Positions 23,418 through 57,342 of a DNA stretch of 64,000 nucleotides are shown piece after piece. This DNA comes from a virus, in IMG/VR virus record IMGVR_UViG_3300005253_002057, positions 1-64,000 of that record; one strand, written 5' to 3'. Within the stretch, counting starts at the first letter, position 1; every line of letters begins with the position of its first letter. Both the position numbers and the translations under genes were made by a program. The notes beneath the pieces are model-generated. The model saw only the letters and a program-made list of their open reading frames with translations, did not search any database and was not told the DNA's origin.

Positions 23418-23446
23418 ATTATAACGTATATATAAGGTAAGGTCAA
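23418..23446 (-). promoter_or_regulatory. leftward sigma70-type promoter
   Basis: TTGACC-17-TATAAT on the minus strand. Confidence 0.85.
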
Positions 23447-23456
23447 GTTTTCAAAC

Positions 23457-23485
23457 TTGACAGTGGTGTGTTTCTGGTGTATAAT
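23457..23485 (+). promoter_or_regulatory. rightward sigma70-type promoter
   Basis: TTGACA-17-TATAAT. Confidence 0.9.
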
Positions 23486-28561: not shown

Positions 28562-28565
28562 CGCT

Positions 28566-30290: not shown

Positions 30291-30292
30291 AC

Positions 30293-34890: not shown

Positions 34891-34931
34891 TAATGACCAA
34901 GGTTTACCATTGTCGCAGTTTCTCATATAAT
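34891..34931 (+). promoter_or_regulatory. late promoter with conserved TAATGACCAAGGTTTA element
   Basis: TTTACC-17-TATAAT; the 16-mer recurs exactly at 44889. Confidence 0.65.
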
Positions 34932-34989: not shown

Positions 34990-35196
34990 ATGGAGATGGT
35001 AGGAGCGCTGATTGGCGTAGTTATAGCGATGGTAGTGGGAGTAGCCTTGCTTCCAGTCATTGTGAACACTATAGCCACCCTTAATACCGAGACCACAGAT
35101 GCCTCGGTAATTTCCTTGGCGGGACTTCTTCCTATAATCCTGATTGCGATCGTGATTATGGGAGCTGTGGCTTTCGTCGCCGGCGGTCTGGGCTAG
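34990..35196 (+). CDS. putative major capsid protein, spindle-shaped virus (SSV1 VP1-like) two-helix type
   Basis: 68 aa; helix 1 VVGVALLPVIV, short polar linker, helix 2 LAGLLPIILIAIVI; first gene of the structural operon; GAGG SD; distinct codon usage. Confidence 0.75.
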   Translation: MEMVGALIGVVIAMVVGVALLPVIVNTIATLNTETTDASVISLAGLLPIILIAIVIMGAVAFVAGGLG

Positions 35197-35330
35197 TAGC
35201 TGTTACGAGAATTTTCTAGCCCAGACGATAATTAGTGAGTACGGTGCTACTAGCTACGCCTAGCGTATCGGGGTACTTAATGGTGGTGATGCTTTACAAG
35301 CATCTAATGGATAGCGAGCCCACCAGCTAG
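35186..35330 (+). other. structured intergenic RNA element after the capsid gene
   Basis: 11-bp inverted repeat GTCTGGGCTAG/CTAGCCCAGAC plus further stems (GATGCT/AGCATC, TGGTGG/CCACCA). Confidence 0.55.
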
Positions 35331-35358
35331 TTATGAATATGTCTTACAGGTTTTCCCT

Positions 35359-35583
35359 ATGTCAATAAGAATGTCTGCTAGAGGAAGTGCTTGGATAGAA
35401 AAGCAGCTTCTTCGAGAAGGACCAGGAACAGTTCCAGAACTGGTCGCTGCATTTATAGTCACCTCCAAGAATCCTATAGATTCTGTTGAAGATATACAGG
35501 TTGAGCTAACTGCGCTTGACCCTGACTTGGTTGAACGTTCCTTTATAGCCCTGTCACAGCAGGGAATGGTACAGGTGACTTAG
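35359..35583 (+). CDS. small wHTH-like protein (permuted family)
   Basis: N-terminal IRMSARG and C-terminal FIALSQQGMVQV. Confidence 0.45.
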   Translation: MSIRMSARGSAWIEKQLLREGPGTVPELVAAFIVTSKNPIDSVEDIQVELTALDPDLVERSFIALSQQGMVQVT

Positions 35584-35584
35584 C

Positions 35585-38497
35585 ATGTTTAATATTGAAG
35601 AAGAACAAGAAGAAGAAAAAATCTGGGTTCTTAGTAAGAGATCTGATCAGAGAAAGAAAGACAAAAAGGCAAGTAAAGCTGCAGTAAGGGCTAGAAGAGG
35701 CGAAAGAAGAGAAAAGAGACTAAGTCTTAAGAAGGAGAAGAAGAAGAAAAAGTCTACTGCTATTCAAAGGCTTAGGGGTAAAGGGCCAAAGATAAGTTCC
35801 ACTCAGATAGTAGCTGAGAAAGCCTCTACTAGGGCTACTGCTCCTCCTTCTCCTGCTACAGCTAGTGCTAGGCCTAAGCGAGGTGTAGTAGCAAGGGAGA
35901 CACAGGCTCAGTTTAAGGCTTTTCAGGCACGAGAACAATTAAAAGCGGCCCCAGCTCTTTTAGCTGCTTTTAATAAAAAGGTTGCGGACCAGAGGGCAGC
36001 TTCAGCTAAGAAGCGAGAACAAGCAGCTAAGAAGCAAGCACAAGCAGCCCTAGTAGTTAAACTTCGAGATCAAAAGAGAATAGATGATAAGAAGGCTAGA
36101 AGTACTAGGTTTACGGCTCCAGCCATTACTGGCTCTACAACCTTTGAAGACGACGCACCTGATACTGGACCCGCTTTTGCTAGAGCAGCTACCGCTAAAA
36201 GAGGAAAAGTCGCAGGATTGGCTTCACTAAGTCTTGCTGCTGCTACTAGTACACTAGCTACAACTAGGCCAACCACTGTAGCACCTAGAGATTTTAGGGA
36301 TGTAAAACCTAGAGTTACTAGACCACCAGAGACTGAACGTTTTAGAGATGAAAAGGGACAAACAGTAATAGACTTTGCTATATCCAGATCACTAGGTAGA
36401 TTTACTAAACCTAGGCCACGATCTATTACAAGAGTTGCTAGTAAAGGAGTTGTTAGTAAAGGAGTTGTTAGTACAGGAGAAAAAATAAGGAGAAGAGCTG
36501 TAGCTATATTCAGACCTAGTGACGAAGGTAGAGGTAGACAAGATCTAGGTACTGGTAGAGGGACTAGGTTCTTTACCAAGAGAGCTATTGATCTACGGCC
36601 TGATTTTGAAGAAAGCGGACTTAGCCCAAGGCAAGGAAGATTTGTGGCCCGAGGACTAGGAGAAGCAACTAAAAGGGCAAAAGAAGTAGCCCTTACAACT
36701 CGCAGAGTTGGAACCACTTCAGAGGATATTAGACAAATTAGACTACGTGTAGGAAGGACTCTTGGAAAAGCAACAGAAATAACTGATGCTAACCGAGCAG
36801 CAATAGAACGAGGGGAAATAGAATTTTTAACTCCTGTACCTAGCACTTTTAAGAGAGCACTAATAGCTGCTGAGGTTGGTAGCCTAATACTTCCTGGAGG
36901 TGTAGTTGCTAGGCCTGCAGGCTTTGTACTTAAAACAGTAGCAAGACCAGTAATAAGTTTTGCTGCTCCTAAAGTGGCTAGACTTGCTACACCTGTAGTT
37001 ACTAGAACCACTGGTTTACTAGCTAGAGGATTGGCTAGGGAAAGAGTTATAACTGGGGGAGTAAGAAGTACTAGAGGACTGTTTCAGTCAGCAGCTCAGA
37101 GGGCAAGAGAGCTAGGTTCTTCTACCATAAGAGTAACATCCCCAGTAGCTACAAGAACAGCAGCCGTAGCTTCAAGAACTACAGCTGCTGCAGGTAGAGC
37201 AGCCACTTTAGCAGCCAAGCCTGTTAGAGCAACTGGAGAAGGACTATTTAGTGTTGTTAGAGCTACACCTAGAGTAGCTAGAACAGCAGGACAAACTGTA
37301 AAAACTCTAGCAAGAGGGGCAGATGAGGGAGTAAGAATTAGTGCTAAAGCCTCTCGTCAGTTAGCCCAAACTGCCCAGCTTCAGGCTCTAGCAGCTAAAC
37401 AAGGTGGTAGTGTAGTAAGAGTAGCTACTAGAAATCCATTTGCTGCATTTGGTAGAGGAGTAGCAGGCGCTACTAAGCTAGCTGCTAAGTCTACAGCAAG
37501 AAAAGCAGCCTCTCCAGGTAGACGTTTAGCTGCTCCAGCAGCTAAGGTAATTAAAGGAGCTAAAACAGGAGCAAGAGTTGGTACAAAGGTAGTTAAACCT
37601 GTAGCAAAGCCTGTATTACGAGGATCTGGTAGACTACTTAGAAGTCCAGTAGGCTTAGTAGCTGGGGGGCTAGGTGCAGTAGTAGGAGGAGGTTTAATAC
37701 TACAAGGACTTAAAGGTGCTCCCCTTGCTCCAGCTCAGCAAGCCCCAGCCCCAGCTGCGCCAGCTGCTCCTCAAGATACTAGAAGACCCCAGAGACAGCA
37801 GCAACAGCAGGCTGCACAAGCTGTACAAGCTGCTCCAGCCCCAGCTAGAGGACCTGCTAGGGTTACTACAGTTACTCCTGTTACTGCGCCTAGTACAGTA
37901 GTAATAGATGAAGGGGCTACATCAGCCCCAAGTAGAACCCCTGTACCTATAACTACTACTCCTGGTAAGATAGCTCAGACTATAGCGGTGCCTACTATAG
38001 GTCCTGATGGTCAACCTATTATAGACCCTATTACTGGGGAAGTAGTTACTACTGTAGTGGATATAGTAGATGTTCCTCTTGTTGAAGGTGAGCCTGATGT
38101 AAGTCCTTTACCTGCTATAGTCCCACTAGTAGCAGCTGCTGCAGGTATAGCAACTGGTCTTCTTTCAAGAGGCAGAGGTGGAGGAAGCTCTAGTCAATCA
38201 TTCTTTGGTGGAAGTAGTTCTTTTATAGGGCCAACTATATTTAGAACAGCTGAGGGACAGACTGGAATAAGAATAGTGAAGGATGGTAAAGGCACTATAA
38301 CACTAGAAGTAGAGAGAGTTCCAGTTAAGAGATTTACCATTTTAGGTAGACCTTTAGTAAAGAGACCTACCAGAATCTTAGGAGCAGCAGTACAAAGTAA
38401 AGCAATAGCTTCTGCTGGTCAATCACTGCTCAATCCTCCAGTTGTAGGAAGTACAACTGTACTGGCTAAAAGAGCTTTACAAGGAAGGCTTAGATAG
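35585..38497 (+). CDS. 970-aa very basic low-complexity protein (virion internal or nucleoprotein candidate)
   Basis: R/K/A/T-rich, two short hydrophobic segments, lies between the two capsid-like genes. Confidence 0.6.
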   Translation: MFNIEEEQEEEKIWVLSKRSDQRKKDKKASKAAVRARRGERREKRLSLKKEKKKKKSTAIQRLRGKGPKISSTQIVAEKASTRATAPPSPATASARPKRGVVARETQAQFKAFQAREQLKAAPALLAAFNKKVADQRAASAKKREQAAKKQAQAALVVKLRDQKRIDDKKARSTRFTAPAITGSTTFEDDAPDTGPAFARAATAKRGKVAGLASLSLAAATSTLATTRPTTVAPRDFRDVKPRVTRPPETERFRDEKGQTVIDFAISRSLGRFTKPRPRSITRVASKGVVSKGVVSTGEKIRRRAVAIFRPSDEGRGRQDLGTGRGTRFFTKRAIDLRPDFEESGLSPRQGRFVARGLGEATKRAKEVALTTRRVGTTSEDIRQIRLRVGRTLGKATEITDANRAAIERGEIEFLTPVPSTFKRALIAAEVGSLILPGGVVARPAGFVLKTVARPVISFAAPKVARLATPVVTRTTGLLARGLARERVITGGVRSTRGLFQSAAQRARELGSSTIRVTSPVATRTAAVASRTTAAAGRAATLAAKPVRATGEGLFSVVRATPRVARTAGQTVKTLARGADEGVRISAKASRQLAQTAQLQALAAKQGGSVVRVATRNPFAAFGRGVAGATKLAAKSTARKAASPGRRLAAPAAKVIKGAKTGARVGTKVVKPVAKPVLRGSGRLLRSPVGLVAGGLGAVVGGGLILQGLKGAPLAPAQQAPAPAAPAAPQDTRRPQRQQQQQAAQAVQAAPAPARGPARVTTVTPVTAPSTVVIDEGATSAPSRTPVPITTTPGKIAQTIAVPTIGPDGQPIIDPITGEVVTTVVDIVDVPLVEGEPDVSPLPAIVPLVAAAAGIATGLLSRGRGGGSSSQSFFGGSSSFIGPTIFRTAEGQTGIRIVKDGKGTITLEVERVPVKRFTILGRPLVKRPTRILGAAVQSKAIASAGQSLLNPPVVGSTTVLAKRALQGRLR

Positions 38498-38498
38498 A

Positions 38499-38720
38499 TT
38501 GGGAATTGTAAAAACCTTCGGAGCCTTTATAGGCACAGCCATAACACTAGTTTTGCTCTGGGAGTTTCTTCCAGTTATTCAGACTTTGTTTGATGGAGTT
38601 TCTGATAACTCAGTTCTGAGTGATAGGGAACTAGGGACTATAAGTCTACTACCTTTAATAATAGTAATAATAATACTGCTGGGCTCTGCAGCTATAATAA
38701 GATCCAAACTAAAGAGATGA
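38499..38720 (+). CDS. capsid protein paralog (VP3-like minor capsid protein)
   Basis: FLPVIQ...ISLLPLIIVIIILLG, same architecture as 34990..35196. Confidence 0.7.
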   Translation: MGIVKTFGAFIGTAITLVLLWEFLPVIQTLFDGVSDNSVLSDRELGTISLLPLIIVIIILLGSAAIIRSKLKR

Positions 38721-38833
38721 AAGTCCTTGCCTTGTTAAAAACTCATTATATAGGTCTAAGTAGCTCCTTCTCCATAGTTGGAGCTTTTATGATCTGGTGG
38801 GCCTCAAATGGTTGGGACTGTCCCTTAGGTTAA
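38717..38833 (+). CDS. 38-aa membrane peptide
   Basis: ATGA overlap with the upstream stop; translation MKVLALLKTHYIGLSSSFSIVGAFMIWWASNGWDCPLG. Confidence 0.45.
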   Translation: MKVLALLKTHYIGLSSSFSIVGAFMIWWASNGWDCPLG

Positions 38834-38844
38834 GGAGGAAATAT

Positions 38845-39927
38845 ATGCCTTACTCTCATTCTTGGATAAAGCAGTTAGGACTTTCTATTGGGCTTGCTAT
38901 AGTATTTATAGCAGGCTTTGTATATCTTACAGCCCCTCCCTGTGCCTTTGGAGCAGCTGAGTGTCCTGTAGGTTCAACTTCTGTATTCTCTGAGAATATA
39001 GGAATACAAGGTGGAACTACTTTTACTACAACTATAGATAGTACTCCTACAGGAGATAGAACATATACTATACCTGCTACAGGAGCAAATGATACTTTTG
39101 CCCTACTTGGTACAAGTAATGTGTTTTCTGGTAGTGGGGCTCTACTAGATAAGTTTGTCAACTCTGGAGATGGTATAACTATTACAGTTGAGAATACTAA
39201 TGGAACTCCAACTGGATTTAGTGTAGTAGATATAATTGGCCCTTCAAGCACCGCAAACTATGAACTTCTTACTATATCTAATGATGGGGTAGATGAATCA
39301 GGAGATGTGCTTAAGATCACAGGTAATGGAGTCGTAGATGTTACCAGTGCTCAATTTAGCGTAAGTACCGCAGTAGGGGGATCTAGTGCTGGTGCAACTA
39401 TAGCTATTCCAGCTAGTGGAACCGGAGATGCTGTAACCCTATTTAGTCAGGGCGCAGCAGATGGATCTGCTAATAATATGGGATATATAATGGGTTATGA
39501 TGGTGGTGCAGGATATTTGAAGTTAGCAAGTACAGATACTGATGGAGCCTCTACTGACGCAGATATCTGGAGAGTTCTAGATAGTCAGCTATCTATAGAT
39601 GCTAACACTACTTGGGACGAGAATGTCTTTGACAGCTATAGAGATGCAGAACTATTAGCCGCTTCTATTAGTCCTTCAGCCCCTTCTTATCAGTTTGAAA
39701 ATGGAAAAGTTTTAAGAGGAAGAGATGTTCTTATAGAAGTAGGTATTCTTAAGTCTTATGATGATGAATTCGTAGGTTATAATGACCAGCGGATGGCAGC
39801 TTTGCTGGCAGGAGGCATATATCAATCAGCTGAACTTATAGAACGAAACATGGTGCTAATAGAAGAGTTAATAAATAAAGTAAATCTTTTAGAGAATGAG
39901 ATCTGTGAACTTAAAGAAGCTTGTTAA
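38845..39927 (+). CDS. membrane-anchored fibre/spike protein with C-terminal coiled coil
   Basis: AAGGAGG SD before ATG 38845; N-terminal TM; G/T/S/D-rich body; chaperone-like coiled-coil end. Confidence 0.6.
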   Translation: MPYSHSWIKQLGLSIGLAIVFIAGFVYLTAPPCAFGAAECPVGSTSVFSENIGIQGGTTFTTTIDSTPTGDRTYTIPATGANDTFALLGTSNVFSGSGALLDKFVNSGDGITITVENTNGTPTGFSVVDIIGPSSTANYELLTISNDGVDESGDVLKITGNGVVDVTSAQFSVSTAVGGSSAGATIAIPASGTGDAVTLFSQGAADGSANNMGYIMGYDGGAGYLKLASTDTDGASTDADIWRVLDSQLSIDANTTWDENVFDSYRDAELLAASISPSAPSYQFENGKVLRGRDVLIEVGILKSYDDEFVGYNDQRMAALLAGGIYQSAELIERNMVLIEELINKVNLLENEICELKEAC

Positions 39928-42418
39928 CAAGCGATATCCTATTGCCTGGGCTATAGTATTAGTTTTTGCTTTATTATTTATAAATGTCTTTGATTCTATA
40001 AGTAATAAAGCTTGTAAGACTTATGCTAATCACGTAGTAACTGACTTCTGTAGACAAACTGACATATTTGTTACTAAGGTAAGTCCTGGAAATCTTAGTA
40101 ACTATCCAGTAGCAGTTCCTATAGATCTTAGAGCCTATGTAGATGGAAATACTCTCTCTGAATTTGGCTGGGACATTCTTCCTGTACAAGGGGCTGAAGT
40201 TCCAGCTATGATACAAGATATAGACCCTGGAGATGTAGAGAGTATCTTTTGGATTCAGGGAGACTTATTAGGCAGTGAAGCCACTGTTACCTTTAATGTC
40301 TATACAGGTAATGCAGATTTTAAGCGAGATCAGGGAATTCTCTTACATCAAGCTTCTGGCGCCGACTCTTTATCAGTACTTGCCGATGCAGTCTTTAATA
40401 TAACAGACAATATTGAAGTTATAGTACATGCAGATACTGATACACCAGATCAGAATGGAATTCTACTAGATAAGTTAAATGGAAATAATGGTTACCAGTT
40501 AGAAGTAACTACTACAGGAGCTGGTAGTATACTTGCCACAGTAGGGAGTGGTGCAGCTACTGATACTTTAGAAGTAGCTTGGACTGGTGATGAAACTATA
40601 AGAATGACCTTTGATGCAGGGGCTGTTAACGATTTAGATATATCATTTCTTAATGCTGCTGGAGTATGGGTATCTCAAGGAGATACAAATACAACCTTTG
40701 CTAGCTTAGGAACACATGGTAATGATCTTCTCATAGGCACTGGCTTTGATGGAGTTATACAAGAAGTTGAAATAAGAGATGATGTAGGTTTAGGCTCCTA
40801 TGCTAAAGTAGCCCAGTGGTCTTTTGATGCTAGAGATATAACTGAGACTCAAACTGGAACTGATGCAAATAGTTGGACTTATATAGGAACTGTAGAAGAA
40901 CTTATATCAACGCACGACGCTACTTATACCTTAATAAATGACCAGTCAGGACTTAGCGTAGCTATAGGAACTGCTCCTTTAGTAAGTGGAGCCAGTTCGA
41001 GTATACAAGGAGTTGCTTTCGCACTCTCAGCCTTAGATTCTATAGCTGGACTAGCTGGGGCTACTAATGCAGTAGAAGCTTGGCAAAGAAATACTAATAC
41101 ATGGTATATAGGAGTAGTATACGATGTTGCTCCTTTTTTCTCAATACTAGAGTGGAATGGAGATGCTCTATCAGTAAAGTCTACTGCTGGAGTAGGACTC
41201 ATAACTGGACAAGGAAATGCTATATCTTCCTGGCCGTCTAGAACTGTAGTAAGTGATAGAATTATAGCAATAGGGCATAACACAGCGCCCTTTCTAACAT
41301 TATTAAGATGGGATGACAGTGCTCAAGCTATAATAGGGGAAGATACTCCAGCTTTAGCCCCTCAGGGTAATACTTTAGATCTTGTCCACTGGACTAATCC
41401 TAGAGTGAGCACTGTAACAATAGCTGTAGCCAACGTAGTTGATGTAGAATTTTACTCCTATTCAGAACGAGAATCCAATCTTAGCTTTAAAGGAAGTCCT
41501 ACAATACCTATCCCAGAGCTAACTGCAATTACTTCTATATCCATACCTCAGGAATTTAGAAAGAGAACAGTAAATACTAATTTAGATGTAGAGGACACAA
41601 GCGTATTTATAACTCAAGCCCAGGCTTTTGGTGCTGATGTTCTTAGTTGGTTATGGATAGATAGCTCTAACGCTGACGAAGATGTAGCAGATGACGACTT
41701 TAGCCTTACTGATGACACTACTGATATAATAGTCTGGAATGATCGAGAGGGTGATGCTTCTGAGCACTTAATACTTATTGCTTATTCTTCAGGCAGTGAG
41801 TTAAGAGTACTAAGAACTAGTCATGAAAAAGGTAGTATATTATCTCAAGCCACTATAAACTCTGCTGGAACTAGTACAGCGGTAGATAGCTGGAGTACAG
41901 AAGTTGTGGCTAGCAGACTAATTGCCTCTACTTATATTACTACAGCTAGAGTAGACTTACTAACATGGAATGAGCAAGCTTTAGGAACAGTAGCTACCTT
42001 AGGTTTAGCCACCTCTCCAACTCATCTTACTTCTTGGAAAGAACCTGCAGACACTGTAGTAGCTGCAGTAGAAAGTCAAATATTAGCCATAAGCTGTGGC
42101 TCATGTAATGGAGTGTCTATAGTAAGAGCTTCAGTATCACTGGAGGAAATAATAGTAAGAGAAGAAGGGCTAGACTTTATAGAAACCTTTGCAGCTCAAG
42201 TAGGTTTAGACTCAGTGGCTGCAGCTGGTATAGTAATACTCCTTTCTTTTGTAGGTATATATATAATAGAAGGAAATCTAATAGGTTCAGGGCTAGTTAC
42301 GTCTGGCCTGCTAATATACTTTTTAGTAACAGGACTTATAGGTTTCTGGGTTGCTATACCTATAGTATTTCTAGGACTATTTGCACTGTATAGTAGATAT
42401 AGAGGAGCCTGGGAATAG
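39896..42418 (+). CDS. large membrane-anchored virion/adsorption protein (N-terminal TM, 3 C-terminal TM)
   Basis: beta-rich acidic ectodomain with LamG-like and propeller-like repeats; terminal TM cluster. Confidence 0.65.
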   Translation: MRSVNLKKLVNKRYPIAWAIVLVFALLFINVFDSISNKACKTYANHVVTDFCRQTDIFVTKVSPGNLSNYPVAVPIDLRAYVDGNTLSEFGWDILPVQGAEVPAMIQDIDPGDVESIFWIQGDLLGSEATVTFNVYTGNADFKRDQGILLHQASGADSLSVLADAVFNITDNIEVIVHADTDTPDQNGILLDKLNGNNGYQLEVTTTGAGSILATVGSGAATDTLEVAWTGDETIRMTFDAGAVNDLDISFLNAAGVWVSQGDTNTTFASLGTHGNDLLIGTGFDGVIQEVEIRDDVGLGSYAKVAQWSFDARDITETQTGTDANSWTYIGTVEELISTHDATYTLINDQSGLSVAIGTAPLVSGASSSIQGVAFALSALDSIAGLAGATNAVEAWQRNTNTWYIGVVYDVAPFFSILEWNGDALSVKSTAGVGLITGQGNAISSWPSRTVVSDRIIAIGHNTAPFLTLLRWDDSAQAIIGEDTPALAPQGNTLDLVHWTNPRVSTVTIAVANVVDVEFYSYSERESNLSFKGSPTIPIPELTAITSISIPQEFRKRTVNTNLDVEDTSVFITQAQAFGADVLSWLWIDSSNADEDVADDDFSLTDDTTDIIVWNDREGDASEHLILIAYSSGSELRVLRTSHEKGSILSQATINSAGTSTAVDSWSTEVVASRLIASTYITTARVDLLTWNEQALGTVATLGLATSPTHLTSWKEPADTVVAAVESQILAISCGSCNGVSIVRASVSLEEIIVREEGLDFIETFAAQVGLDSVAAAGIVILLSFVGIYIIEGNLIGSGLVTSGLLIYFLVTGLIGFWVAIPIVFLGLFALYSRYRGAWE

Positions 42419-42422
42419 TAAT

Positions 42423-42752
42423 ATGAGAGCTGTAATAATATTTACATTACTTTTTTACTCCTTGGTTGGCTTTATAATAACTAAGCTTCCTACTCCTGAC
42501 CAAGCAGAGGGCTTCAATATAATAACTGAAGCTGACATAGAAGAAACTGTAGTAGTAAAAGCTTCTGAGCAGCCTAGCCCAGCTACTGCCATAGTAGTGG
42601 CAGGACTAAATCTCTTTGCAGTAATAAAGACTATATATCTATTACTTAGCTTTCAATTAAGTGGAGTTCCATTTCTTATAAATCTATTGTTCTTAGTCCC
42701 AGCAAATATAACAGTCTATATGGTAGCAGTCCAGTTGGTTAGAGGGGGCTAG
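42423..42752 (+). CDS. small membrane protein (3 TM)
   Basis: MRAVIIFTLL..., hydrophobic C-terminal hairpin. Confidence 0.6.
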   Translation: MRAVIIFTLLFYSLVGFIITKLPTPDQAEGFNIITEADIEETVVVKASEQPSPATAIVVAGLNLFAVIKTIYLLLSFQLSGVPFLINLLFLVPANITVYMVAVQLVRGG

Positions 42753-44891
42753 ATGACTAAGAAACTAGCAGGGCTAGTTCTAGTCTTTATATTCTTTCTA
42801 AGTAGCTTTACTTCAGTACCAGTATCTGAAGCTTCGCATTTAGGAATAGAGTTTCTGTTTGATAATGGAGACCATTTTATAGCTGGAGAACCTGTAAGAA
42901 TTAGATTGAGAATAGACTTTACAGTAGGAGCTCTTTTCACAATACAGTTAGTAAGACTTGATACCTCGGAAGTAAAAAACATACAAACCTTTGTAGTTCC
43001 AGCAGCTATAAATGGCTTTAGTACTATAAATTATGAGTATAAGTCTGAGGCTACTGATTTCTTTCCCTTCTCTTTAGTAGCTACTGATTTAGATGCTATA
43101 TCTAGAATAGCCTTTATAGCTATTCTTCCTAATAGCATAGCTAGTTCTCAAGGTGCTTTCGATAACTTAGCTCTTGATACAGTCTATATAGTTGATGCAA
43201 GCCCAGATTTTGAGCTTAGATTAAATGACTATACTTTTAAGCAGGGGGAGTACATAGTAGTCTGGCATAGATTAGAAACAGTTGCAGAATCAGTAGCCCC
43301 TGATATAGTAGAGCATGTATCTAATCAAGATGTTAGATCGGAACTTCAGCTTTATGACGTAGCCTTTAACTCAAATGGAGTAGTACTACCAATAAATAAG
43401 CCTCCAGAGGCTACTGATAATCCACGTTATACCTTACTTGTTCCTGTGTTCGAAGGAGAAACTAGTACCCCTTTCACTGATAATACTCACGCTATCCCTA
43501 ACAGTGGACTATTTGTAATTGGATTAGATAAGTCAGATCAATCTATAGATAGATTTACTGGAGGATCTGGCACTATGGCTGCTAGGACTCCAGATAAATC
43601 TAGTGTCTTAGGAGCAACATGGACTAACCAAGTAGGAACTTGGTCAGTAGATGGTAGCGGAAAAGCTTCTCCTACTGCATCTGCTGCTTCTGGACCTTAT
43701 ACCTTTAGCGCAGTAACTACATTACAAGATGGAGCTACTGCATTTAGTAATAAGACCTTTTCTGCAGCCATAGACATAGATACAGTAGCAGCTGCTGGTA
43801 GTGTTGGGATAGTTACTAACTGGACAGATTCAAATAATCATTGGCGCTTTATAATTACTTGGGATGCTACTCCAGCTGACGCTACATTTTCTATAGGTAA
43901 TTATAATGCTGGGGTGTTGTCTGAAGTAGCTTCTGGAGCTATTACTCTTGCAGTAGATGACGTAGTTAATCTTTTTGTTAGTGTGGATAAAGAAGGAACA
44001 CAAGGAAACTGGACTATACTGGCTTTAAAAGGAGACCAGTCCCCTACGTTAGGAGATAATGTAACTGTAGTCGAGCCTTTATTAGAGTTCTCCTTTGCAG
44101 ATAATACTTTATTAGATGCTGATGGCCCAGATACTTGGGGTCTAATAGCTACAAGTGCAGTGGATGCAGCTAATGTACTTAACAGATCTGTAGAGTATAT
44201 AGCCTGGACTGCATTACTACCCTCTGTGCTAGCAGTAAATGAGCCTGACCATGCTCAAAACTTTGTAGATCAATATGGGCTAGAAAATCCAGTAGTAGGT
44301 ATAGCTATATCAGGAAAGTCTTTCGAGGTTATAGAACAGTTTAATGTAGTATCACTTAACTCAGAGCAACTAGTAAAACTAGCCCATCCAGATGCTAAAG
44401 TATTTACCAGCTTTAATAGTAAGGTACTGCAAGATACTGGAACTGCTACTAGACAAGAATTAGCCTATTCTTATAGGGATTCCAGAACTTTGAATCTAGG
44501 TACAGTTGTATGCTGCTCAGATGATACTCATCATATATCACTGGAGCTAGCATCTACTAGAGTAAATTCTAGAACTGGTAGTACTTATGTCTGGATATTA
44601 GCAACTGAGTATACTGTAGGGCAAGTAAGAAGTGTAGTGGGGGGATTAAACAGACTATCTGGAAGCTTTGGGATGGGCGATACTAAAGGACATATTGCTT
44701 TTGCTTTTATACTTTCTCTTTTAGTTACCATACTTATGCTACACTTTTCCCTAACAGGATCTATTATAGCTGGGACTACACTATGGATAGGACTTGTAGT
44801 AATAGGTTATGTACCACCTTGGACGCTGATGTTTCTAGTACTAATAGGAGGATTACTAAATGTAACAGGGCTCCTAAGTAGGGAAGTATAA
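42753..44891 (+). CDS. secreted/virion protein with signal peptide and 3 C-terminal TM helices
   Basis: signal peptide ending SEA; lectin-like beta region; C-terminal TM cluster like fusellovirus VP4-type proteins. Confidence 0.65.
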   Translation: MTKKLAGLVLVFIFFLSSFTSVPVSEASHLGIEFLFDNGDHFIAGEPVRIRLRIDFTVGALFTIQLVRLDTSEVKNIQTFVVPAAINGFSTINYEYKSEATDFFPFSLVATDLDAISRIAFIAILPNSIASSQGAFDNLALDTVYIVDASPDFELRLNDYTFKQGEYIVVWHRLETVAESVAPDIVEHVSNQDVRSELQLYDVAFNSNGVVLPINKPPEATDNPRYTLLVPVFEGETSTPFTDNTHAIPNSGLFVIGLDKSDQSIDRFTGGSGTMAARTPDKSSVLGATWTNQVGTWSVDGSGKASPTASAASGPYTFSAVTTLQDGATAFSNKTFSAAIDIDTVAAAGSVGIVTNWTDSNNHWRFIITWDATPADATFSIGNYNAGVLSEVASGAITLAVDDVVNLFVSVDKEGTQGNWTILALKGDQSPTLGDNVTVVEPLLEFSFADNTLLDADGPDTWGLIATSAVDAANVLNRSVEYIAWTALLPSVLAVNEPDHAQNFVDQYGLENPVVGIAISGKSFEVIEQFNVVSLNSEQLVKLAHPDAKVFTSFNSKVLQDTGTATRQELAYSYRDSRTLNLGTVVCCSDDTHHISLELASTRVNSRTGSTYVWILATEYTVGQVRSVVGGLNRLSGSFGMGDTKGHIAFAFILSLLVTILMLHFSLTGSIIAGTTLWIGLVVIGYVPPWTLMFLVLIGGLLNVTGLLSREV

Positions 44892-44923
44892 TGACCAAGG
44901 TTTATCCCTGCCACAGCCAAGAC

Positions 44924-44952
44924 TTGACACTTGGCGCAATCTGATGTATAAT
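44924..44952 (+). promoter_or_regulatory. sigma70-type promoter of the assembly operon
   Basis: TTGACA-17-TATAAT preceded by TAATGACCAAGGTTTA (44889-44904). Confidence 0.9.
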
Positions 44953-44961
44953 TAATATATA

Positions 44962-45504
44962 ATGATTTTAACTAATAATCCAGCTGCTATACAACTACTC
45001 CTTGTGATAAGTGTACTCTTTACTGCAGGATTAATTCTAGCCTTATACTTTGGCTTTAGAAGATGGATAGCAGCTAGAATGTTAGTATGGGTAATACACC
45101 CAGATAGAAGACTAAGCAAACATATGGTTAGACCAGAATCTGACGGTAATATAAGAATACCTAAGATAGGGTCTAGATTTCTTTTCACTCCTGCTGATGT
45201 ATTCTACTCCAGTCTTCCTTTAGTAGGGGAACCAATTCCAGCAATAATGTGTCACATAGATAAACCTGAGGCGCTGGATATAATAGGGCTAGTTCCCAAA
45301 GAAGGTATAACTTCTACTGAGTTATCAAGTGCTTTCGATAATAGAATGTTAGAGCAGTGGGTAAGAGCTACTAAAGAGCCAGGATTGGCTAGATTAAGGT
45401 CTACTTTGGTAATAGGATTAGCAGCCGTGCTGCTTGCAGTACTAGGTTCTACATACTTTATTGCTACCTCAGTATTAGGTCCTATAAGCCTACTGGAAAG
45501 ATAA
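44962..45504 (+). CDS. membrane protein with TM at each end (assembly factor candidate)
   Basis: hydrophobic helices at both termini; upstream of the ATPase. Confidence 0.6.
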   Translation: MILTNNPAAIQLLLVISVLFTAGLILALYFGFRRWIAARMLVWVIHPDRRLSKHMVRPESDGNIRIPKIGSRFLFTPADVFYSSLPLVGEPIPAIMCHIDKPEALDIIGLVPKEGITSTELSSAFDNRMLEQWVRATKEPGLARLRSTLVIGLAAVLLAVLGSTYFIATSVLGPISLLER

Positions 45505-45507
45505 AAA

Positions 45508-45987
45508 ATGGAATTCTTTTCTAAGCAAAAGACTAAGTCATCTAATAATGGAGCCACTCCTAGTGAGAACTCTTCTAGCAATAATAAAGTAGAAGCTGGG
45601 GATAATAACTTTAGAAGCGCCTTTTGGCAGAGTCTAGCTGGACAGGCACCTACTACAGAAGGGGGCCAAGGTTTAGCCTCTCTATTAGGTATAGGAGGTC
45701 TTGGCGGAGACGATAATCAAAATGCTTTAGAGTTATTTGACATTCCTACAGACTTTGGTGATCTTCATGAGCTTAGAAGACTAATAGCAAAGTCTGATAT
45801 TCCAGCTGAGTTGGTACAACCACTAATGACTTTACTAGGATTGGCTGAAAGATTTGCATCCAAGCTAGTTCCAAGCCTAGTAGGTTGGTACTTGGTAGGT
45901 AGAATAGGAAAGAATAGACTTGGACGGGAAGAGTTTATCAGAGCAACTCAACGGCAAGCCTTAGTACAGAAGGACGATGATGACTAA
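45508..45987 (+). CDS. hypothetical protein
   Basis: ORF abutting the ATPase gene. Confidence 0.55.
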   Translation: MEFFSKQKTKSSNNGATPSENSSSNNKVEAGDNNFRSAFWQSLAGQAPTTEGGQGLASLLGIGGLGGDDNQNALELFDIPTDFGDLHELRRLIAKSDIPAELVQPLMTLLGLAERFASKLVPSLVGWYLVGRIGKNRLGREEFIRATQRQALVQKDDDD

Positions 45988-46524
45988 GTGGCTATAACAG
46001 TGATAACTGGCCCTATGGGAAGTGGAAAGACTACTCTTATGACTGCAGTAGGAGTACTGGCCCATGAACTAGATGGAGTTAGGATATTCTGTAACTATCG
46101 CTTGACTGGTATAGAACATACCTTTTTTAGACCTACTGAGTTTGCCGACTTGATGGAGGCTGAGGAATTAAATAATTGCATAGTTCTATTAGACGAGGCA
46201 TATCTTCTTATGGATTCCCGTACTTCTGGTGCTAGGATAAATAGATTATTTTCCGCTTTTACTTACCAAGCAAGAAAAAGAGGAGTAGACTTACTAGTAG
46301 TTACTCATCATACAGATCATATAGATAAGCGAATAAGAAGAGCCATGTCTTATAGATGGAGGCCTAGATTTAATCCAACTACTCATGTAATAACTGTATA
46401 CTCAAAGGCTGAAGAAGTAGGGCATAGGTCTAGATTCAAGATACAAGCAGATAAGTTCTGGCCTTACTTTGACACTAATGAGATTCCTATTATAAGCAAG
46501 CAGTTAAAGAGGGTAGTATTTTAA
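45988..46524 (+). CDS. Zot/pI-like morphogenesis (genome extrusion/packaging) ATPase
   Basis: GPMGSGKT, IFCNY, VLLDEAY...DSR, QARKRGVDLLVVTH...IDKRIR. Confidence 0.85.
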   Translation: MAITVITGPMGSGKTTLMTAVGVLAHELDGVRIFCNYRLTGIEHTFFRPTEFADLMEAEELNNCIVLLDEAYLLMDSRTSGARINRLFSAFTYQARKRGVDLLVVTHHTDHIDKRIRRAMSYRWRPRFNPTTHVITVYSKAEEVGHRSRFKIQADKFWPYFDTNEIPIISKQLKRVVF

Positions 46525-46698: not shown

Positions 46699-47397
46699 GT
46701 GGTGGACTCCCCTACTAAGGAAAAGTCCCTAGATGAAATTAGGACTAACCTAGCAAAGTCCTATGTTGAGAACAGTGGTGGCTTGGTCGCTGTATATAAT
46801 AGGGAAGAAATAACATTTCTATTAAGTATTCTAACTAGAGCTCTAGAAGGTAGTACTTTTCCAGGTCAGCAAAGAATAGTTAATGAAACTAGACAACTTC
46901 TAAGTAAATGGGACTGGAGCAAGCTTCCAGCTGAACTAGAGGGTAACTTAAAGCTTTACGTCTTTAATAGACTTAAGTTAGAAAAATCAAAGACCTACAC
47001 TTTTAGAAGAGTAGAGGCTTTAATATTTGCTGACCAGAATAAGGAGAAGGGTTTGAATCAAGAAAATCAAGGAAGTAGTAGCCTAGAACAGTACGCAGAG
47101 TCTCAAGATGAAGACTCAGAAGTAATAGATTTGCAGAAAGCGGATGACGAAGAGTTCACCTACTATGTAGTTAGGGCTGAGGAATTCTCCCGCTTTGAGC
47201 TAGCTACTATTTTAATTTCGATGGGAAATCAGTCGGAAGAAGATCTACAAGTAAGACTTCACGAAGAATTACTTATAGTATCTGATGACCCTGACTTAGA
47301 AGATCATCAAGAAGAAAGTCTTGCTGTCTATATACTTGACCTAGAAAAGGATGGAGGTATTTTAGATAAGAAGGCTCTAGATGAACAAAAAGACTAG
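46699..47397 (+). CDS. hypothetical acidic protein
   Basis: long ORF with an acidic C-terminal half. Confidence 0.55.
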   Translation: MVDSPTKEKSLDEIRTNLAKSYVENSGGLVAVYNREEITFLLSILTRALEGSTFPGQQRIVNETRQLLSKWDWSKLPAELEGNLKLYVFNRLKLEKSKTYTFRRVEALIFADQNKEKGLNQENQGSSSLEQYAESQDEDSEVIDLQKADDEEFTYYVVRAEEFSRFELATILISMGNQSEEDLQVRLHEELLIVSDDPDLEDHQEESLAVYILDLEKDGGILDKKALDEQKD

Positions 47398-47714
47398 TCT
47401 GTAATGAATAAGGTTCAATATATCTTATCTCTATGGTATTATATACTAGGAGATATAACTAAAGAAATAGTAGAGTTGCTAAATTCAATAGCTATACACT
47501 ATGCTCCTGAGCCCCCTCTAGATATATCTGACAAAGGTAATCTTAATCTATTCGACTTATTACTACTAGGCACTTACGAAGGAGGCAAGATAATGGCTGG
47601 GCTTCTTAGAAAAGGCCTAGTAGCATATAGAAAAGGTATGATAATAGGGGGAAAAGCCTTAATAGCATACTCTAAAAAGAAACGCAGGGAGAAAAAGCAA
47701 AGACAGGGAGTGGG

Positions 47715-47909
47715 ATGACTAAGAAAGCAGCTACTCTAGGGGACATAAAAAAGGCGGCTAACTCCTATCATAAAGGGGTAAAGGAGGCTAGCAAAAGCTT
47801 TCATGGTACCTATGGAGGGGGCATAAAAGACTTAACTAAGCATCTAGGTAGAAAAAAGACTTCTATAAAGGGAAGAAAGGTAAGGGCTAGAAACAGTCTA
47901 AAATTCTAG
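47715..47909 (+). CDS. small basic protein
   Basis: K-rich, 64 aa. Confidence 0.55.
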   Translation: MTKKAATLGDIKKAANSYHKGVKEASKSFHGTYGGGIKDLTKHLGRKKTSIKGRKVRARNSLKF

Positions 47910-48165
47910 CGCTTAATTAATGCTTAATGAGTGAAGAATCTGAGACTGAGGATGAAAACTCTGTAGAATCTGTAGTATTGAGGTTTGCAGGTTTTATAGC
48001 TGGTTTATTCATATTCCTTCATTTCTTACAGAGAATGGAGACTAACCAGCTTTTTCTTTTTCTAGCCTTTATAGGGCTGGGCCTAGGACTGCATGTAGGA
48101 TTTACTGCTTGGCAAGGATTTGGGGCAGTAAGAAAAAAGAGGGATGAGGCTAAGGAGCGTTATAA

Positions 48166-51100
48166 ATGAAGAATCAAATGGCTTTAGTACTTATAATAAT
48201 AGCAGTAGCTGTAGGACTGGTATCTTTAGGTGGGGGAATTACATCACTGGGTGTAGTTGCCCCAATCTCTTCTACAGGAGGTACAGCTCCTACACTTAGT
48301 ATAGCCGCTTGTCCTGATGGAGAAACTTATACCTTTGATTCAGGTACTAGCACCTGGACTTGTGGAAATGCTGGACATACTATACAAGATGAGGCTGTAA
48401 GTCTAGCTACAGAACCAACTCTAAACTTCACTGGAGCTGGTGTAGTCTGTGCGGATAATCCAGGTAATACTAGAACAGACTGTACTATAACAGGAGTAGC
48501 AGGTTCAGGAGTACAGCTAGACTTAGGTAATGATGATGTAATAGAATCCACAGGCATTACAGAAATAAATGTAGATAATGACACTAATTCTATATTTACA
48601 GAAACTCCAGCAGATCAACTATTAATAGATGCTAGTCTTAATTGGCCTATATCAGATGACGTAAGCTGTACAGACTGTCTAAATGCCACAGAGATAGAAG
48701 ATATCTATGTTCTTATTGTTGGAGACACAGTAACAGGGAATATAGACTTCGATGATGGAGTAGGGGAAAGTCCTCGTGTTCTCTTTTCCCCTCAAACAGG
48801 GACAGTCTGGGATATCTACGCAGAAGACGCAACAGATGACTTACAGATAGAAGTTACTACTGCTGTTGCTGAAGGTCTTGATATTGTAAACACTGGTGCA
48901 GGTATTGTAGTTTTAAGTCTTGATTCTTTAGCCACAGGTGGGGCTTCTGAATGTGTAGAGGCAGACACTAATGGAGTATTAGCTCTAGCTGGTTCTGCTT
49001 GTGCATCAGGAGGTGGAGATTCAATAGAAGTAGAGGACGGAGATAATACTGGTACCTTTTCTACTATTGATACTACAGCTAGATTTGAAGACTCAGCAGA
49101 TATTAACTTTTCTTTAGCAGATGGTGGGCCTGGAGGTCCTGACGATATCACTGGAACTGTTAGGGCAAATGCAGTAGCCCTAGCTACAGATACTACTGGT
49201 GCCTTTGTTGCTACAGTAGCAGATTCTGGAAACACTAATATAACAGTAGCAGGCTCAGGAGCTGAGAATGCTGCTGTTACTTTAGATGTTATAGACGTTA
49301 ACTGTACTAACTGTCTTGATGCCACTGAGATTGCAGATATCTATGTTCTAGTTGCCGGAGATGTTATGACAGGCAACCTAGATATGGATGATGGAACCAC
49401 AGATTCTCCTAGAATTCTCTTCACTGTTCAAACAGGTACAGTTTGGGATATCTATGCTGAAGACACAAGTGATGATCTTCAAATAGAAGTAACTACTGGA
49501 GTAGCTGAGAATCTAGATATAGTAAATACTGGTGCTGGAACTGTAGTTCTTACATTGGACTCACTTGCTACTGGTGGGGCTTCAGAGTGTGTTCAAACTG
49601 ATACAAATGGAGTCTTCTCTAATACAGGAGGAGCCTGTGGTGGGGGCAGTGTTGATCTTCAAGGAGCTTACGATAACGAAGTTAATCCAGCTCTTATTAC
49701 CCTTGATAATACTATAGGAGGTATTATCTTTGATGGCGATGCTGAGCTTTCTGACCCCACCTTTACAATTAGAGATGATGGAGGATCTGTAGGAATACTT
49801 ATAGATAATGATGATGAAGCAGGAAATGAGGCAAGTCCTCCTTTAAGAATAGCAAACTCAACAGCAGCTGCTGGAGACACACAGTTTTCTTTTATAGTTA
49901 CAGCAACAAGTGAGTTGGAGATAAGAGGAGATGATGACGCTGCAGACTTAACGATAGAAGCTGATGGGGATCTAGATCTGGCGGCCAATTTGACTTGCTC
50001 TAGTTGTATAGATCTAGGTGGAGAGTCAGCTGGGGCTTACGTGGCTACTGTAGCTGATTCTGGTAATACTAATATTACTGTAGCAGGCTCTGGAGGAGAA
50101 ACAGCAGCAGTTACTTTGGATGTAATAGGTGTTAACTGTACCGACTGTCTTGGAGCTACAGAGATAACTGATATATACGTCTTAGTTGCTGGCGATGTAA
50201 TGGCTGGTAACTTAGACTTTGATGATGGCACTACAGATTCTCCTAGGGTTCTATTTAGACCACAAACTGGAACTCTTTGGAATCTTTATGCAGCTGATTC
50301 TGATGATGATTTTCAAATTGAAGTAAATACTGCAGTAACAGAAGTAGTTGAGTTAACTAATTTAGGCATAGGAGACGTAGACCTAACTCTAGATGGGGAT
50401 ATAAACTGTACAAACTGCATAACTTTAGCCACTGAAACTGTAGGTGCATTCGTAAATGATATCACAGGTGGAGATGGAATATCCTCAACTGGTGGAGGTG
50501 CAGAAGACTCCACACCTACTATAGCAATAGACCTGACAGATGATGCAGATGGAACTAGTGCTACAACTGCAGCTGAAAGTGGGCTGGAGTTTCTTACCAG
50601 TGAGTTATCTTTACTTAGAGGTTGTTCCAACGGGGAGATACTAAAGTGGACTCTCGGAACTGAAGACTGGGGTTGTTCAGCAGATAGTACAGGAGGCTCC
50701 CCTACCTTTGATACTATAGCTTCAGGTACAAATACCACAGCTACAATGACCATAGACGAAGGGGCTGAGATTATTCTAGCAACGGGGGGAATAAATGAAG
50801 CTTCTGAAGTTCTTAATACTGTACATAATGACTCAGGTGCTACACTCTTCCAGTGTACAGCCGTTTACCTAAACGGGTTTGATATTCCAGCTGACCTTCC
50901 AGATGTTTTAATTGCTGATTCTGATGTCTCAGGAGCTGCTATAGGTCTAATATTTTCTGATGCAGTTACAGGGTCTGACGTTTTAATCGTAGTTTCAGGT
51001 CAGATGGATGACCTAGACACAGTAACGGGGGAAGGTTGGACTGTAGGAGATACATTATATCTCAATGACTCTGGTACTTCAGCCGATAATGATTGTGGTA

Positions 51101-54498: not shown

Positions 54499-54817
54499 TG
54501 AACAAGGTATCATAACAGGCTAGAATGCTGATAAACTGACCAAGGAGAGATGTAACATGGTCGAAGCAATCAGTACTACTGGAAAAGTAAAAGCAGAAGC
54601 TAAGGTGGCTAGACACACAGTAGGAGACGTAGTTAGGGCCAGAAATCTTAGAGTAGGTGATGTAGTAAGTGTAATAGATACTAACTACAAGTTCCAAGTA
54701 GTTACCAAGACCTTCTTTGAGATAATAGCAGTACCTATTATCGAAAAGCAAACTGACCACAGACATCGAATTCAGTTACTAAGCTTTACACAAGTTGTGT
54801 TACTAGAGAGACTCTAA

Positions 54818-56305: not shown

Positions 56306-57342
56306 TGGCCAGACGATTTAGAAACTTTGAGCGAAGTGGAAGAGTATTTTCCTTTGAACCTGGAGTAAAGGAAAGAAAAGGCAAGGGTGCCTTAGCCAGT
56401 ATTCGTATTACTCAATCTCAGCTTACTAATAGATACAGGCTAGAAAAAGAAGAATTTGGAAGAGCTGGTTCTGGTTTAACTGAGTTAATAAAGTTAGCCC
56501 TTTTTGACAAAGCTGGGGGGCTAGCACCAATTGATGAAGTATTTGTAGAAGAACCTGCAGATATAATTCTACGATTGCAAGAGGCCAATGACTTCGCCCA
56601 GGCTCAACCAGATCTAATTCAGGAAGAGAAACGAATAAGAAGTTTACCAGTAAGAAAGACTGGTAGAGTTATTGAGACCCTAGGAAGTAACCCCAGCCAA
56701 GCGACTTTGGAGCAATTCAAGAAACAAAAGCTTTCTAGTAGACCAGATCTCCGAGCAAGACAGCTTCAAATCAGAGCCAGAGTAGCAAAGCTTGCAGAAC
56801 GAGAGAGACGAGAAGCCTTAACCAATCCCAGGCTCAAAAGAATACTAGAGGCTCAGCAAGATGGCTAGATTTCTTAAGGTCCCAGGTAGAAATAGGGGAG
56901 TAGTAATCAATACCAGCATACCTATAGGACTGGATGAAGATACTGCTGAGCAACTACGTAATCTCATAACAAAGAATGATGGAACTATATTAGGTGTTGT
57001 AGAAAGTGGTGGAGGATTAGTTATTCAAAGCAGCTTTCCTGATAGTTCTAGTGCCAACGCCTTCGTATTAGAAGCAGAAGAGTTTGGATTAGGGTAATGT
57101 TTAAGTTTAATGATGCAGAAACAGTTTCAGCCACAGGCTTCGCAGACGCAGTTATGATAAGAGATTTAAGAGGTGAGCTTAACCTAGAAATTGGGGAGAC
57201 CTTTTCTATGAGTCAAGCCATGACTGCTCTCCAGTCAATAATAGGGTTTCGTGCAAAGAATACATTCAACAGCCTACTCCGCTCCAATCTCATAATAGAA
57301 GTTTAACAGACCATCAACTTTATGAAAGGAGGTCCCGCTTAA

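Follow-up and report, generated by a model that had tools for sequence, protein, structure and literature searches.

The region between positions 34990 and 46524 of the 64,000-nucleotide stretch analysed here (the window, i.e. the first 64 kb of an 88,157-bp virus contig from marine sediment) presumably represents the morphogenesis module of a large double-stranded DNA virus, which encodes hydrophobic hairpin capsid proteins of the SSV1/His1 type and whose host is most likely a bacterium. We put the probability of this reading at roughly 0.6. The virus would belong to a lineage of the spindle-virus type outside the Archaea, equipped with a PolA-type replication module that is common in phages of bacteria. 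An earlier interpretation of the DNA letters (hereafter the sequence-only reading) had proposed a spindle-shaped or extruded, non-lytic virus of bacteria. Its capsid protein, its ATPase, its gene absences and its bacterial signals were recovered in the present analysis, while its lipoboxes were reduced to a single one. The shape of the virion, the 'non-lytic' release and the term 'extruded' can only be inferred.

All genes of the module are located on the plus strand. Three of them are central to the argument:

34990..35196, plus strand: MCP1, candidate major capsid protein (MCP) of 68 amino acids (aa), a hydrophobic alpha-hairpin of the SSV1/His1 type
38499..38720, plus strand: MCP2, a 73-aa paralogue of MCP1 with two hydrophobic helices
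45988..46524, plus strand: Zot/pI-type morphogenesis ATPase of 178 aa with a P-loop and without a membrane segment

Judged by its sequence, MCP1 is a member of the SSV1/His1 capsid superfamily and homologous to the fusellovirus protein VP1. The two-helix hydrophobic character that the sequence-only reading had assigned to it is borne out by two hydropathy peaks and by the AlphaFold2 (AF2) model, a hairpin of two helices (residues 2-29 and 38-66) with a loop between them (predicted local distance difference test score 92.4). The gene is preceded at a distance of 8 nt by the ribosome-binding site GTGAGGA. The MCP1 sequence alone matches nearly the full model of the Pfam family PF25665 His1_capsid with an E-value of 7.6e-4, and two PHROG families annotated as 'virion structural protein' were matched near 1e-3. 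Since the single-sequence score for His1_capsid stays below the threshold, the family membership of MCP1 rests on its profile. A first profile of seven sequences, comprising MCP1, five close homologues and the paralogue MCP2, matches VP1 of SSV19 (PDB 7xdi_A) with an E-value of 2.4e-5, the motif VGVALLPVIV being aligned with VGIVLLPVIT. When 1.84 billion representative proteins were searched exhaustively with a profile, 161 relatives of MCP1 were returned at E-values of at most 1e-3. The profile built from 80 of these relatives matches 7xdi_A at 1.2e-12, with the next PDB sequence following at 0.041, and 18 of the 80 family members match His1_capsid in Pfam (best E-value 4.4e-10).

The same relationship was returned by the comparison of folds. 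In a search of the whole PDB with the MCP1 model, 7xdi_A ranked first with template modelling (TM) scores of 0.82/0.81, a root mean square deviation of 2.0 A over 68 columns and 29% identity, and all remaining matches had TM scores of at most 0.67. The corresponding Foldseek E-value is only 0.074 because MCP1 is short. The structure 7XDI is that of SSV19, in which VP1 forms a curved hydrophobic alpha-hairpin that stacks into seven helical capsid strands (PMC9351363). Neither a pilin nor an inovirus coat protein was returned by the PDB sequence and fold searches with MCP1, so that in the comparison proposed with the sequence-only reading MCP1 falls with the SSV19 VP1/His1 type by profile as well as by fold, and not with pilins or pVIII. 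A tblastn search of a phage collection with MCP1 gave no match, a result of little weight as a low-complexity filter is its probable cause.

MCP2 had likewise been recognised as a paralogue in the sequence-only reading. It shares 30% identity with MCP1, retains the LLPV and LLP(I/L) motifs and has a relative of its own among the profile matches (P0042).

The third gene encodes the Zot/pI-like ATPase, whose assignment was supported by Pfam (Zot, E-value 8e-6 and 25.9 bits at a cut-off of 20.3; AAA, 7.7e-9) and by PHROG (1979 at 2.6e-13, 'Zot-like toxin' at 6e-10 and 'protein I of M13' at 2.6e-7). The best PDB match of the ATPase family profile is 2r2a_A (5.6e-12), which we take to be the N-terminal domain of a Zot protein. 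The Walker A motif GxxGSGKT and the Walker B residues DE are invariant across the alignment. The relationship check suggested with the sequence-only reading placed the protein first with the ATPases of Asgard spindle viruses, the nearest named relatives being those of Muninn virus of Odinarchaeum (1e-10) and of the Lokiarchaeota virus WyrdV1 (1e-8) with 31-32% identity, and next with the inovirus Zot/pI proteins, of which the Zot proteins rank at about 4e-5. The window ATPase has neither a hydrophobic segment nor a C-terminal domain and hence does not show the inovirus pI architecture of a membrane segment and a periplasmic domain. A scan of IMG/VR with the single ATPase sequence gave no match, but the alignment of the ATPase family did find relatives. 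Most of the relatives (P0160, P0161, P0164, P0166, P0170) contain about 50 additional residues, rich in Cys and with CxxCxG repeats, which are absent from the window ATPase and its 67%-identical homologue.

The capsid and ATPase genes were also found together on other contigs. Their linkage and order are maintained across relatives at 37-45% identity; in some of these two capsid genes are accompanied by an ATPase gene 6-9 kb away, whereas the distance amounts to 21 kb in a 110-kb relative (109,607 bp). The latter also shares SNF2, QueC/D/E, FolE, PolA and two further proteins with the contig, the identities ranging from 28 to 50%. A 9.2-kb IMG/VR contig has the order QueE, QueD, FolE, two open reading frames (ORFs), PolA, MCP and MCP. 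Homologues of the ATPase are encoded on metagenome contigs of up to 119 kb, including contigs of 88.7, 97.4 and 113.4 kb. Furthermore, a 48-kb metagenome contig (Ga0209323_10000104, here L118) combines two capsid genes and the ATPase gene with a gene for a protein-primed PolB-like polymerase (18505-19842). Its capsid proteins are identical to those of a 13.2-kb IMG/VR 'provirus' record (G002), which is therefore probably a trimmed piece of L118; no recognisable host flank was found in this record, and the parent contig looked viral in that portion of its remainder that was retrieved. From these gene arrangements, the capsid/ATPase pair is to be regarded as a conserved module occurring in several genome types, and PolA, shared by three related contigs (the present one, G000; the 110-kb relative, G001; and G003), as a marker of the group that includes the present contig.

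Independent contigs in Logan, 25.8 and 34.7 kb long and derived from the source sample, cross the junction between the PolA gene and the capsid gene without a single difference, and variants of 90-95% identity from two further studies span both this junction and the promoter at 44924. The contig is not chimeric at the junction of its enzymatic and capsid genes.

The evidence for the host domain comes primarily from the promoters. Four regulatory features flank the structural operons:

34903..34931, plus strand: promoter of the capsid gene that resembles the sigma-70 consensus at 10 of 12 positions (TTTACC-N17-TATAAT), located in the intergenic DNA downstream of PolA
44924..44952, plus strand: perfect sigma-70 promoter TTGACA-N17-TATAAT inside the structural module, with an ATG 9 nt past the -10 box
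34895..34906, plus strand: element GACCAAGGTTTA, copy 1, ahead of the promoter of the capsid operon
44893..44904, plus strand: element GACCAAGGTTTA, copy 2, ahead of the second structural operon

Sigma-70 promoters had been noticed in the sequence-only reading, and the bacterial signals turned out to be stronger than could be seen at that stage. The whole contig contains seven perfect sites (12/12, TTGACA-N17/18-TATAAT) in the right places and orientations, compared to 0.13 expected from Markov shuffles of the contig, and twelve sites with a match of at least 11/12 compared to 2.4 expected. Six of the seven perfect promoters are intergenic, with intergenic DNA making up 9% of the contig, and all seven are co-oriented with the local genes. 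Their spacers vary, except for an RTG just before the -10 box, and they are therefore not copies of one repeat. The seven are located at contig positions 10293 (minus), 23059 (minus), 23457, 29106, 44924, 62045 and 75074. At five of them, an ATG opening an ORF of 90-180 codons follows 6-9 nt downstream, an arrangement that corresponds to the geometry of leaderless bacterial transcripts; these ATGs are at 10258 (minus), 23492, 44962, 62080 and 75110. For the dUTPase ORF at one of these ATGs the Pfam coverage begins at residue 15, which is consistent with a true start. At least five operons begin with a perfect promoter. Regions upstream of genes are enriched in TATAAT and TTGACA but not in the archaeal TATA box TTTAWATA. 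Nor are the perfect promoters AT-rich between -30 and -24, the place that such a box would have to occupy. Searches for a sigma factor and for TFIIB in this contig and in the 110-kb relative remained empty.

The genes are encoded on the minus strand over positions 1-23,000 and on the plus strand throughout the remainder. At this flip of orientation, two perfect promoters (23059 minus and 23457 plus) and an 11/12 site (23446 minus) are arranged back to back within 23031-23485, the promoter at 23457 driving the leaderless dUTPase gene with its ATG at 23492. The 12-nt element GACCAAGGTTTA occurs in just two exact copies, each directly past a stop codon and before a structural operon, and is possibly the site of a late-gene regulator. 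A looser copy, GACCAAGGAGAG, was observed near 54540.

Based on the sigma-70 consensus promoters, the host is most likely a bacterium, and for this part of the interpretation our confidence is high. Further indications point in the same direction. DNA_pol_A and the OmpR-type domain Trans_reg_C, both encoded on the contig, were positive in all of ten bacterial control genomes and in none of four archaeal ones. Of the controls, nine exceeded the cut-off for Bac_transf; these are entirely or almost entirely bacterial, one of the four archaea being positive as well. The best 80 matches of the viral nucleotide-sugar dehydrogenase in a collection of 185,579 species genomes are all bacterial (42-56% identity, Chloroflexota at the top). 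A lipoprotein with a Septum_form domain (27221-28561) can also be counted toward a bacterial host. Its lipobox (LLTAC) is the only convincing one of the lipoboxes proposed in the sequence-only reading, and it lies outside the structural module, within a cluster of 7-deazaguanine genes.

PolA, as noticed previously, is present directly upstream of the capsid gene (32140-34869) as a 909-aa fusion of uracil-DNA glycosylase, 3'-5' exonuclease and family A polymerase. Its nearest homologues among isolates are those of the Bacillus phages Nachito and SP-10 with 23-27% identity, the glycosylase part included. While PolA is the clear polymerase on the contig, a divergent PolB-like ORF of 652 aa was detected at contig positions 75783-77741, which weakly matches a DNA polymerase family in PHROG (1.1e-5) and can be aligned with the PolB-like gene of L118 across motifs B and C (E-value 0.013). 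A perfect promoter at contig position 75074 drives a leaderless ORF of 113 aa upstream of it. Moreover, a 139-aa ORF on the minus strand (6417-6836) corresponds to the fingers of a family A polymerase only (Pfam 9.7e-6; six-frame search 4.5e-7) and has a zinc-ribbon-like N-terminus.

The sequence-only reading had also pointed out that genes for terminase, portal, HK97 capsid, tail and lysis proteins are missing from the window, and the search was extended to the full contig as had been suggested there. All ORFs of at least 250 aa were scanned against Pfam and many of them also against the PHROGs. None was assigned to a terminase, portal, HK97 capsid, tail or double-jelly-roll capsid family, to VirB4, VirD4, relaxase or another family of the type IV secretion system (T4SS), or to an integrase family. 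Six-frame searches for Terminase_6N, Phage_capsid and Phage_portal in the contig and in the 110-kb relative found none either, while their controls were positive. As to the lysis genes, the finding is limited to Pfam having recognised no peptidoglycan hydrolase.

In comparison with known systems, the virus resembles the Fuselloviridae in having two paralogous capsid proteins, and MCP1 belongs to the family and fold of the fusellovirus proteins VP1 and VP3 with the common motif VG-x-x-LLPVI. Fuselloviruses have circular genomes of about 15-24 kb, an SSV-type integrase, archaeal promoters and hosts among the Sulfolobales. In contrast, the present contig comprises at least 88 kb, has PolA and sigma-70-type promoters, and no integrase was found on it.

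The gene order matches that of the corresponding modules in the two Asgard spindle viruses. In WyrdV1 it reads MCP, MCP, small ORF, 974-aa protein, small proteins, ATPase, and the module in the window is an enlarged version of this layout. The ATPase of WyrdV1 is annotated as 'AAA+ ATPase related to morphogenesis (pI) proteins of filamentous phages', and both WyrdV1 and Muninn virus encode His1-like capsid proteins. The Asgard spindle viruses differ, however, in their linear genomes of 12.7-15.6 kb, in the protein-primed PolB of Muninn virus and in the TFIIB-like gene of WyrdV1, and beyond the ATPase no other proteins shared with the window were found. As the capsid profile fails on their capsid proteins, the relationship to the Asgard viruses is a distant one.

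The predicted spindle viruses of ANME-1 archaea (Itzamnaviridae, Tepeuviridae) likewise originate from marine sediment and have a structural and an enzymatic arm with ThyX and Que genes; the Itzamnaviridae encode two capsid proteins (PMC9894754). These viruses use RNA-primed PolB and archaeal replication proteins, are linked to their host by CRISPR and reach 72.6 kb (PMC9894754). They thus share habitat, two-arm genome and ThyX/Que with the contig and differ from it in its PolA, its bacterial promoters and its size of at least 88 kb. Since the ANME-1 viruses combine up to 72.6 kb with an enzymatic arm, size and arms represent an extension here and not a first. None of them was among the ATPase matches, their presence in the searched collection not being established. 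With the inoviruses the virus shares the P-loop family of the ATPase, but it exceeds them about tenfold in genome size, and neither a pVIII-like coat protein nor a rolling-circle Rep was found. Owing to its genome size, polymerase and promoters and to the lack of a recognised integrase, the virus is placed outside Fuselloviridae and probably also outside Halspiviridae, Thaspiviridae and wyrdviruses.

Besides the capsid and ATPase genes, the structural module comprises the following genes:

35359..35583, plus strand: 74-aa acidic protein (isoelectric point 4.5), possibly winged-helix, with a weak HTH_9 match (E-value 0.0048)
35585..38497, plus strand: 970-aa very basic low-complexity protein (isoelectric point 11.8), rich in Ala, Arg, Lys, Thr and Pro, with weak hydrophobic segments
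38797..39927, plus strand: 376-aa acidic protein (isoelectric point 4.2) with an N-terminal anchor and no Pfam or PHROG family
39896..42418, plus strand: acidic protein of 840 aa; signal or anchor at the N-terminus, large outer domain, two to three hydrophobic helices at the C-terminus
42381..42752, plus strand: 123-aa protein with about four hydrophobic helices and no PDB match
42753..44891, plus strand: acidic protein of 712 aa; signal peptide, outer domain, cluster of hydrophobic helices at the C-terminus
44962..45504, plus strand: basic protein of 180 aa with one hydrophobic helix at either end, the first gene of the assembly operon and nearly leaderless
45508..45987, plus strand: 159-aa soluble acidic protein
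46699..56868, plus strand: stretch in which the structural arm probably continues, encoding acidic proteins of 1641 and 468 aa that are secreted or anchored, as well as small basic proteins

The 970-aa protein has no Pfam or PHROG family. It occupies the position of the 974-aa 'adhesin' of WyrdV1 and is a candidate for a DNA-condensing or internal protein of the virion. An ORF on the opposite strand within its gene (36070-37011) is probably a by-product of composition. Large membrane-anchored proteins with C-terminal clusters of transmembrane helices, as described in the sequence-only reading, are represented by the 840-aa and the 712-aa protein, which are candidate spikes or adhesins. The 840-aa protein has no match in Pfam, PHROG or among PDB sequences, and nothing of use came from searching PDB sequences with the proteins of 123, 712, 840 and 652 aa. 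In the ESM Atlas the 712-aa protein had weak, sub-threshold leads to lectin-like beta-sandwich domains (scores 0.80-0.83). Since VP4 and B210 of SSV19 join the capsid by a helical bundle (PMC9351363), the large proteins with C-terminal helices could possibly be a parallel case. The large proteins encoded between 46699 and 56868 have N-terminal hydrophobic segments and isoelectric points of 4.1-4.6; no Pfam or PHROG family was found for the proteins of this stretch, whose products are presumably part of the virion.

Outside the structural module, the stretch 26089-31309 contains a 7-deazaguanine module with QueC, QueD, a radical-SAM QueE-like protein and FolE, followed by an exonuclease with a Cas4 domain (PHROG 8.4e-17); the Que and FolE genes are common to the 110-kb and the 9-kb relative. 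A glycan-synthesis arm of about 20 kb (contig 63662-83921, mostly past the window) encodes two nucleotide-sugar dehydrogenases, an epimerase, Bac_transf, Wzy_C (O-antigen ligase/polymerase family), FkbM and other methyltransferases, and glycosyltransferases. Among the genes of the early arm on the minus strand are those for a phosphoenolpyruvate-utilising mobile domain standing alone (506-847, 5.2e-28), a collagen-repeat protein (11394-12371, 1.6e-13) and a circularly permuted YpsA SLOG protein (15200-15811, 2e-29).

Several observations weigh against the proposed interpretation. With respect to the capsid protein, the single-sequence score of MCP1 for His1_capsid (19.8 bits) is below the gathering threshold of 27, and the profile of its family fails to detect the capsid proteins of the Asgard viruses. 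With respect to the host, a direct link to any cell by CRISPR, provirus or binning is lacking, so that the bacterial host of the sequence-only reading is supported by the sigma-70 promoters, PolA, the OmpR-type domain and the affinity of the sugar dehydrogenase but not by such a link. Apart from the present case, this capsid protein and this clade of ATPases are known from viruses of archaea only. One relative, L118, has a gene for a PolB-like polymerase of the protein-primed type that is typical of archaeal spindle viruses. Consensus sigma-70 sites are not in excess in the relatives G001, G002 and G003 or in 437 kb around ATPase homologues, and intrinsic terminators are not enriched in the window. 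Neither five bacterial genomes nor 401 genomes of Chloroflexota gave a match to the capsid profile, which does not speak against any host, and the single MCP1 sequence had no relative in the species-genome collection. Since no peptidoglycan hydrolase was recognised, the exit from a walled bacterium is unexplained; a host devoid of peptidoglycan would be one, speculative, answer. Because a hydrophobic alpha-hairpin capsid protein also builds the rigid rod of APBV1 (Clavaviridae), the shape of the virion is not fixed by the fold (PMC9351363). Finally, neither terminal repeats nor inverted ends were detected on the 88,157-bp contig, which is possibly incomplete. Its completeness according to CheckV is only 55% (82% for the 110-kb relative), and the absence of head and tail genes is therefore not final, as these could be located in unassembled DNA. 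CheckV estimates are unreliable where viruses have no close references.

Taking these points into account, the same spindle-type virus might instead infect an archaeon of the marine sediment, its PolA, OmpR-type regulator, glycan genes and promoter-like sites having been acquired from bacteria or having arisen by chance. Every virus with this capsid protein that has been isolated or assigned to a host by CRISPR is archaeal in its host range (PMC10866085, PMC12042106), large two-arm spindle viruses of ANME-1 with ThyX and Que are present in marine sediments (PMC9894754), the nearest ATPases are those of Asgard viruses and the relatives show no enrichment of sigma-70 sites. However, an archaeal host seems unlikely in view of seven perfect promoters compared to 0.13 expected, with variable spacers, six of them intergenic and all oriented with the genes, and in view of the five whose spacing to the ATG is as expected of a bacterial start site. 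In addition, the -30 to -24 stretch and the frequency of TTTAWATA do not indicate archaeal promoters, no gene for transcription factor B (TFB) was found and PolA is common to G000, G001 and G003.

It is likewise improbable, in our opinion, that this capsid protein and a bacterial host are combined with a virion other than a spindle, be it bacilliform or rod-like, pleomorphic or an extruded thick filament. Such a virion would be compatible with the APBV1 rod, which is built from the hairpin fold as well (PMC9351363), with the ATPase belonging to the family of inovirus pI/Zot and with a genome of at least 88 kb, which exceeds the 72.6 kb of the largest predicted spindle virus. The sequence kinship, on the other hand, is specifically to SSV19 VP1 and His1_capsid, and the gene order is that of the spindle-shaped wyrdviruses. 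To our knowledge, every isolate with an SSV1/His1-type capsid protein is spindle-shaped.

We consider it still more doubtful that the contig covers just part of the genome of a large tailed phage, with the head and tail genes in the missing remainder and with the hairpins and the ATPase serving superinfection exclusion or a holin-like role. The CheckV estimates would leave space for such genes, PolA, SNF2, dUTPase, ThyX and the 7-deazaguanine module are typical of tailed phages, and PolA is nearest to that of Bacillus and Gordonia phages. Yet no terminase, portal or HK97 gene was found in 88 kb plus the 110 kb of a second, divergent genome, with positive controls, linkage and order of the capsid and ATPase genes are conserved at 37-45% identity, and more than 11 kb, probably about 22 kb, encode membrane-anchored proteins on one strand in the manner of a structural arm. 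A conjugative or secretion element with VirB2/TrbC-like pilins as small hydrophobic proteins is highly improbable: a two-helix hydrophobic protein next to a P-loop ATPase superficially resembles a pilin/ATPase pair, but the top PDB match is a viral capsid protein, PDB sequence and fold matches include no pilin, the scans revealed no T4SS family and IMG/VR classes the record (IMGVR_UViG_3300005253_002057) as virus.

For a spindle-type virus with a bacterial host, the following course of morphogenesis could be envisaged. The hairpins of MCP1 and MCP2 would insert into the cytoplasmic membrane of the host and polymerise into helical strands, which would form a spindle-shaped or related bacilliform shell around DNA condensed by the basic 970-aa protein. 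The large acidic proteins may be anchored in this shell via their C-terminal helices, as are VP4 and B210 in SSV19, and act as spikes or adhesins, while the ATPase might drive assembly or the loading of DNA at the membrane. The host RNA polymerase with sigma-70 would fire the consensus promoters, giving mostly leaderless mRNAs, and the structural operons starting at 34.9 and 44.9 kb may require a viral regulator given their common element GACCAAGGTTTA; many small winged-helix-like ORFs and an OmpR-type protein are encoded in the genome. The products of the glycan arm may glycosylate virion proteins or alter the surface of the host.

According to the literature of 2022-2025 no bacterial spindle-shaped virus is known (PMC10866085, PMC12042106, PMC9351363), and our literature search found no such report. 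With slightly better than even odds, the present contig and its PolA-encoding 110-kb and 9-kb relatives constitute the first lineage of bacterial viruses, with genomes of 88-110 kb or more, that has the capsid protein of archaeal spindle viruses and a pI-like ATPase. This claim, which is based on indirect evidence for the host and on an incomplete genome, may hold; what would be new is the domain of the host, and the textbook rule that spindle viruses are restricted to archaea would break. The capsid type would then not be specific to archaea and would either have crossed between the domains or predate their split, and the PolA-bearing genomes of 88-110 kb or more would be larger than those of any described spindle-type virus. 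Host assignments of metagenomic viruses derived from this capsid protein alone would be unsafe. It would moreover become testable whether the capsid type depends on the archaeal cell envelope, how such particles leave a bacterium and how a hairpin shell of sliding strands scales from 15 kb to about 100 kb of DNA.

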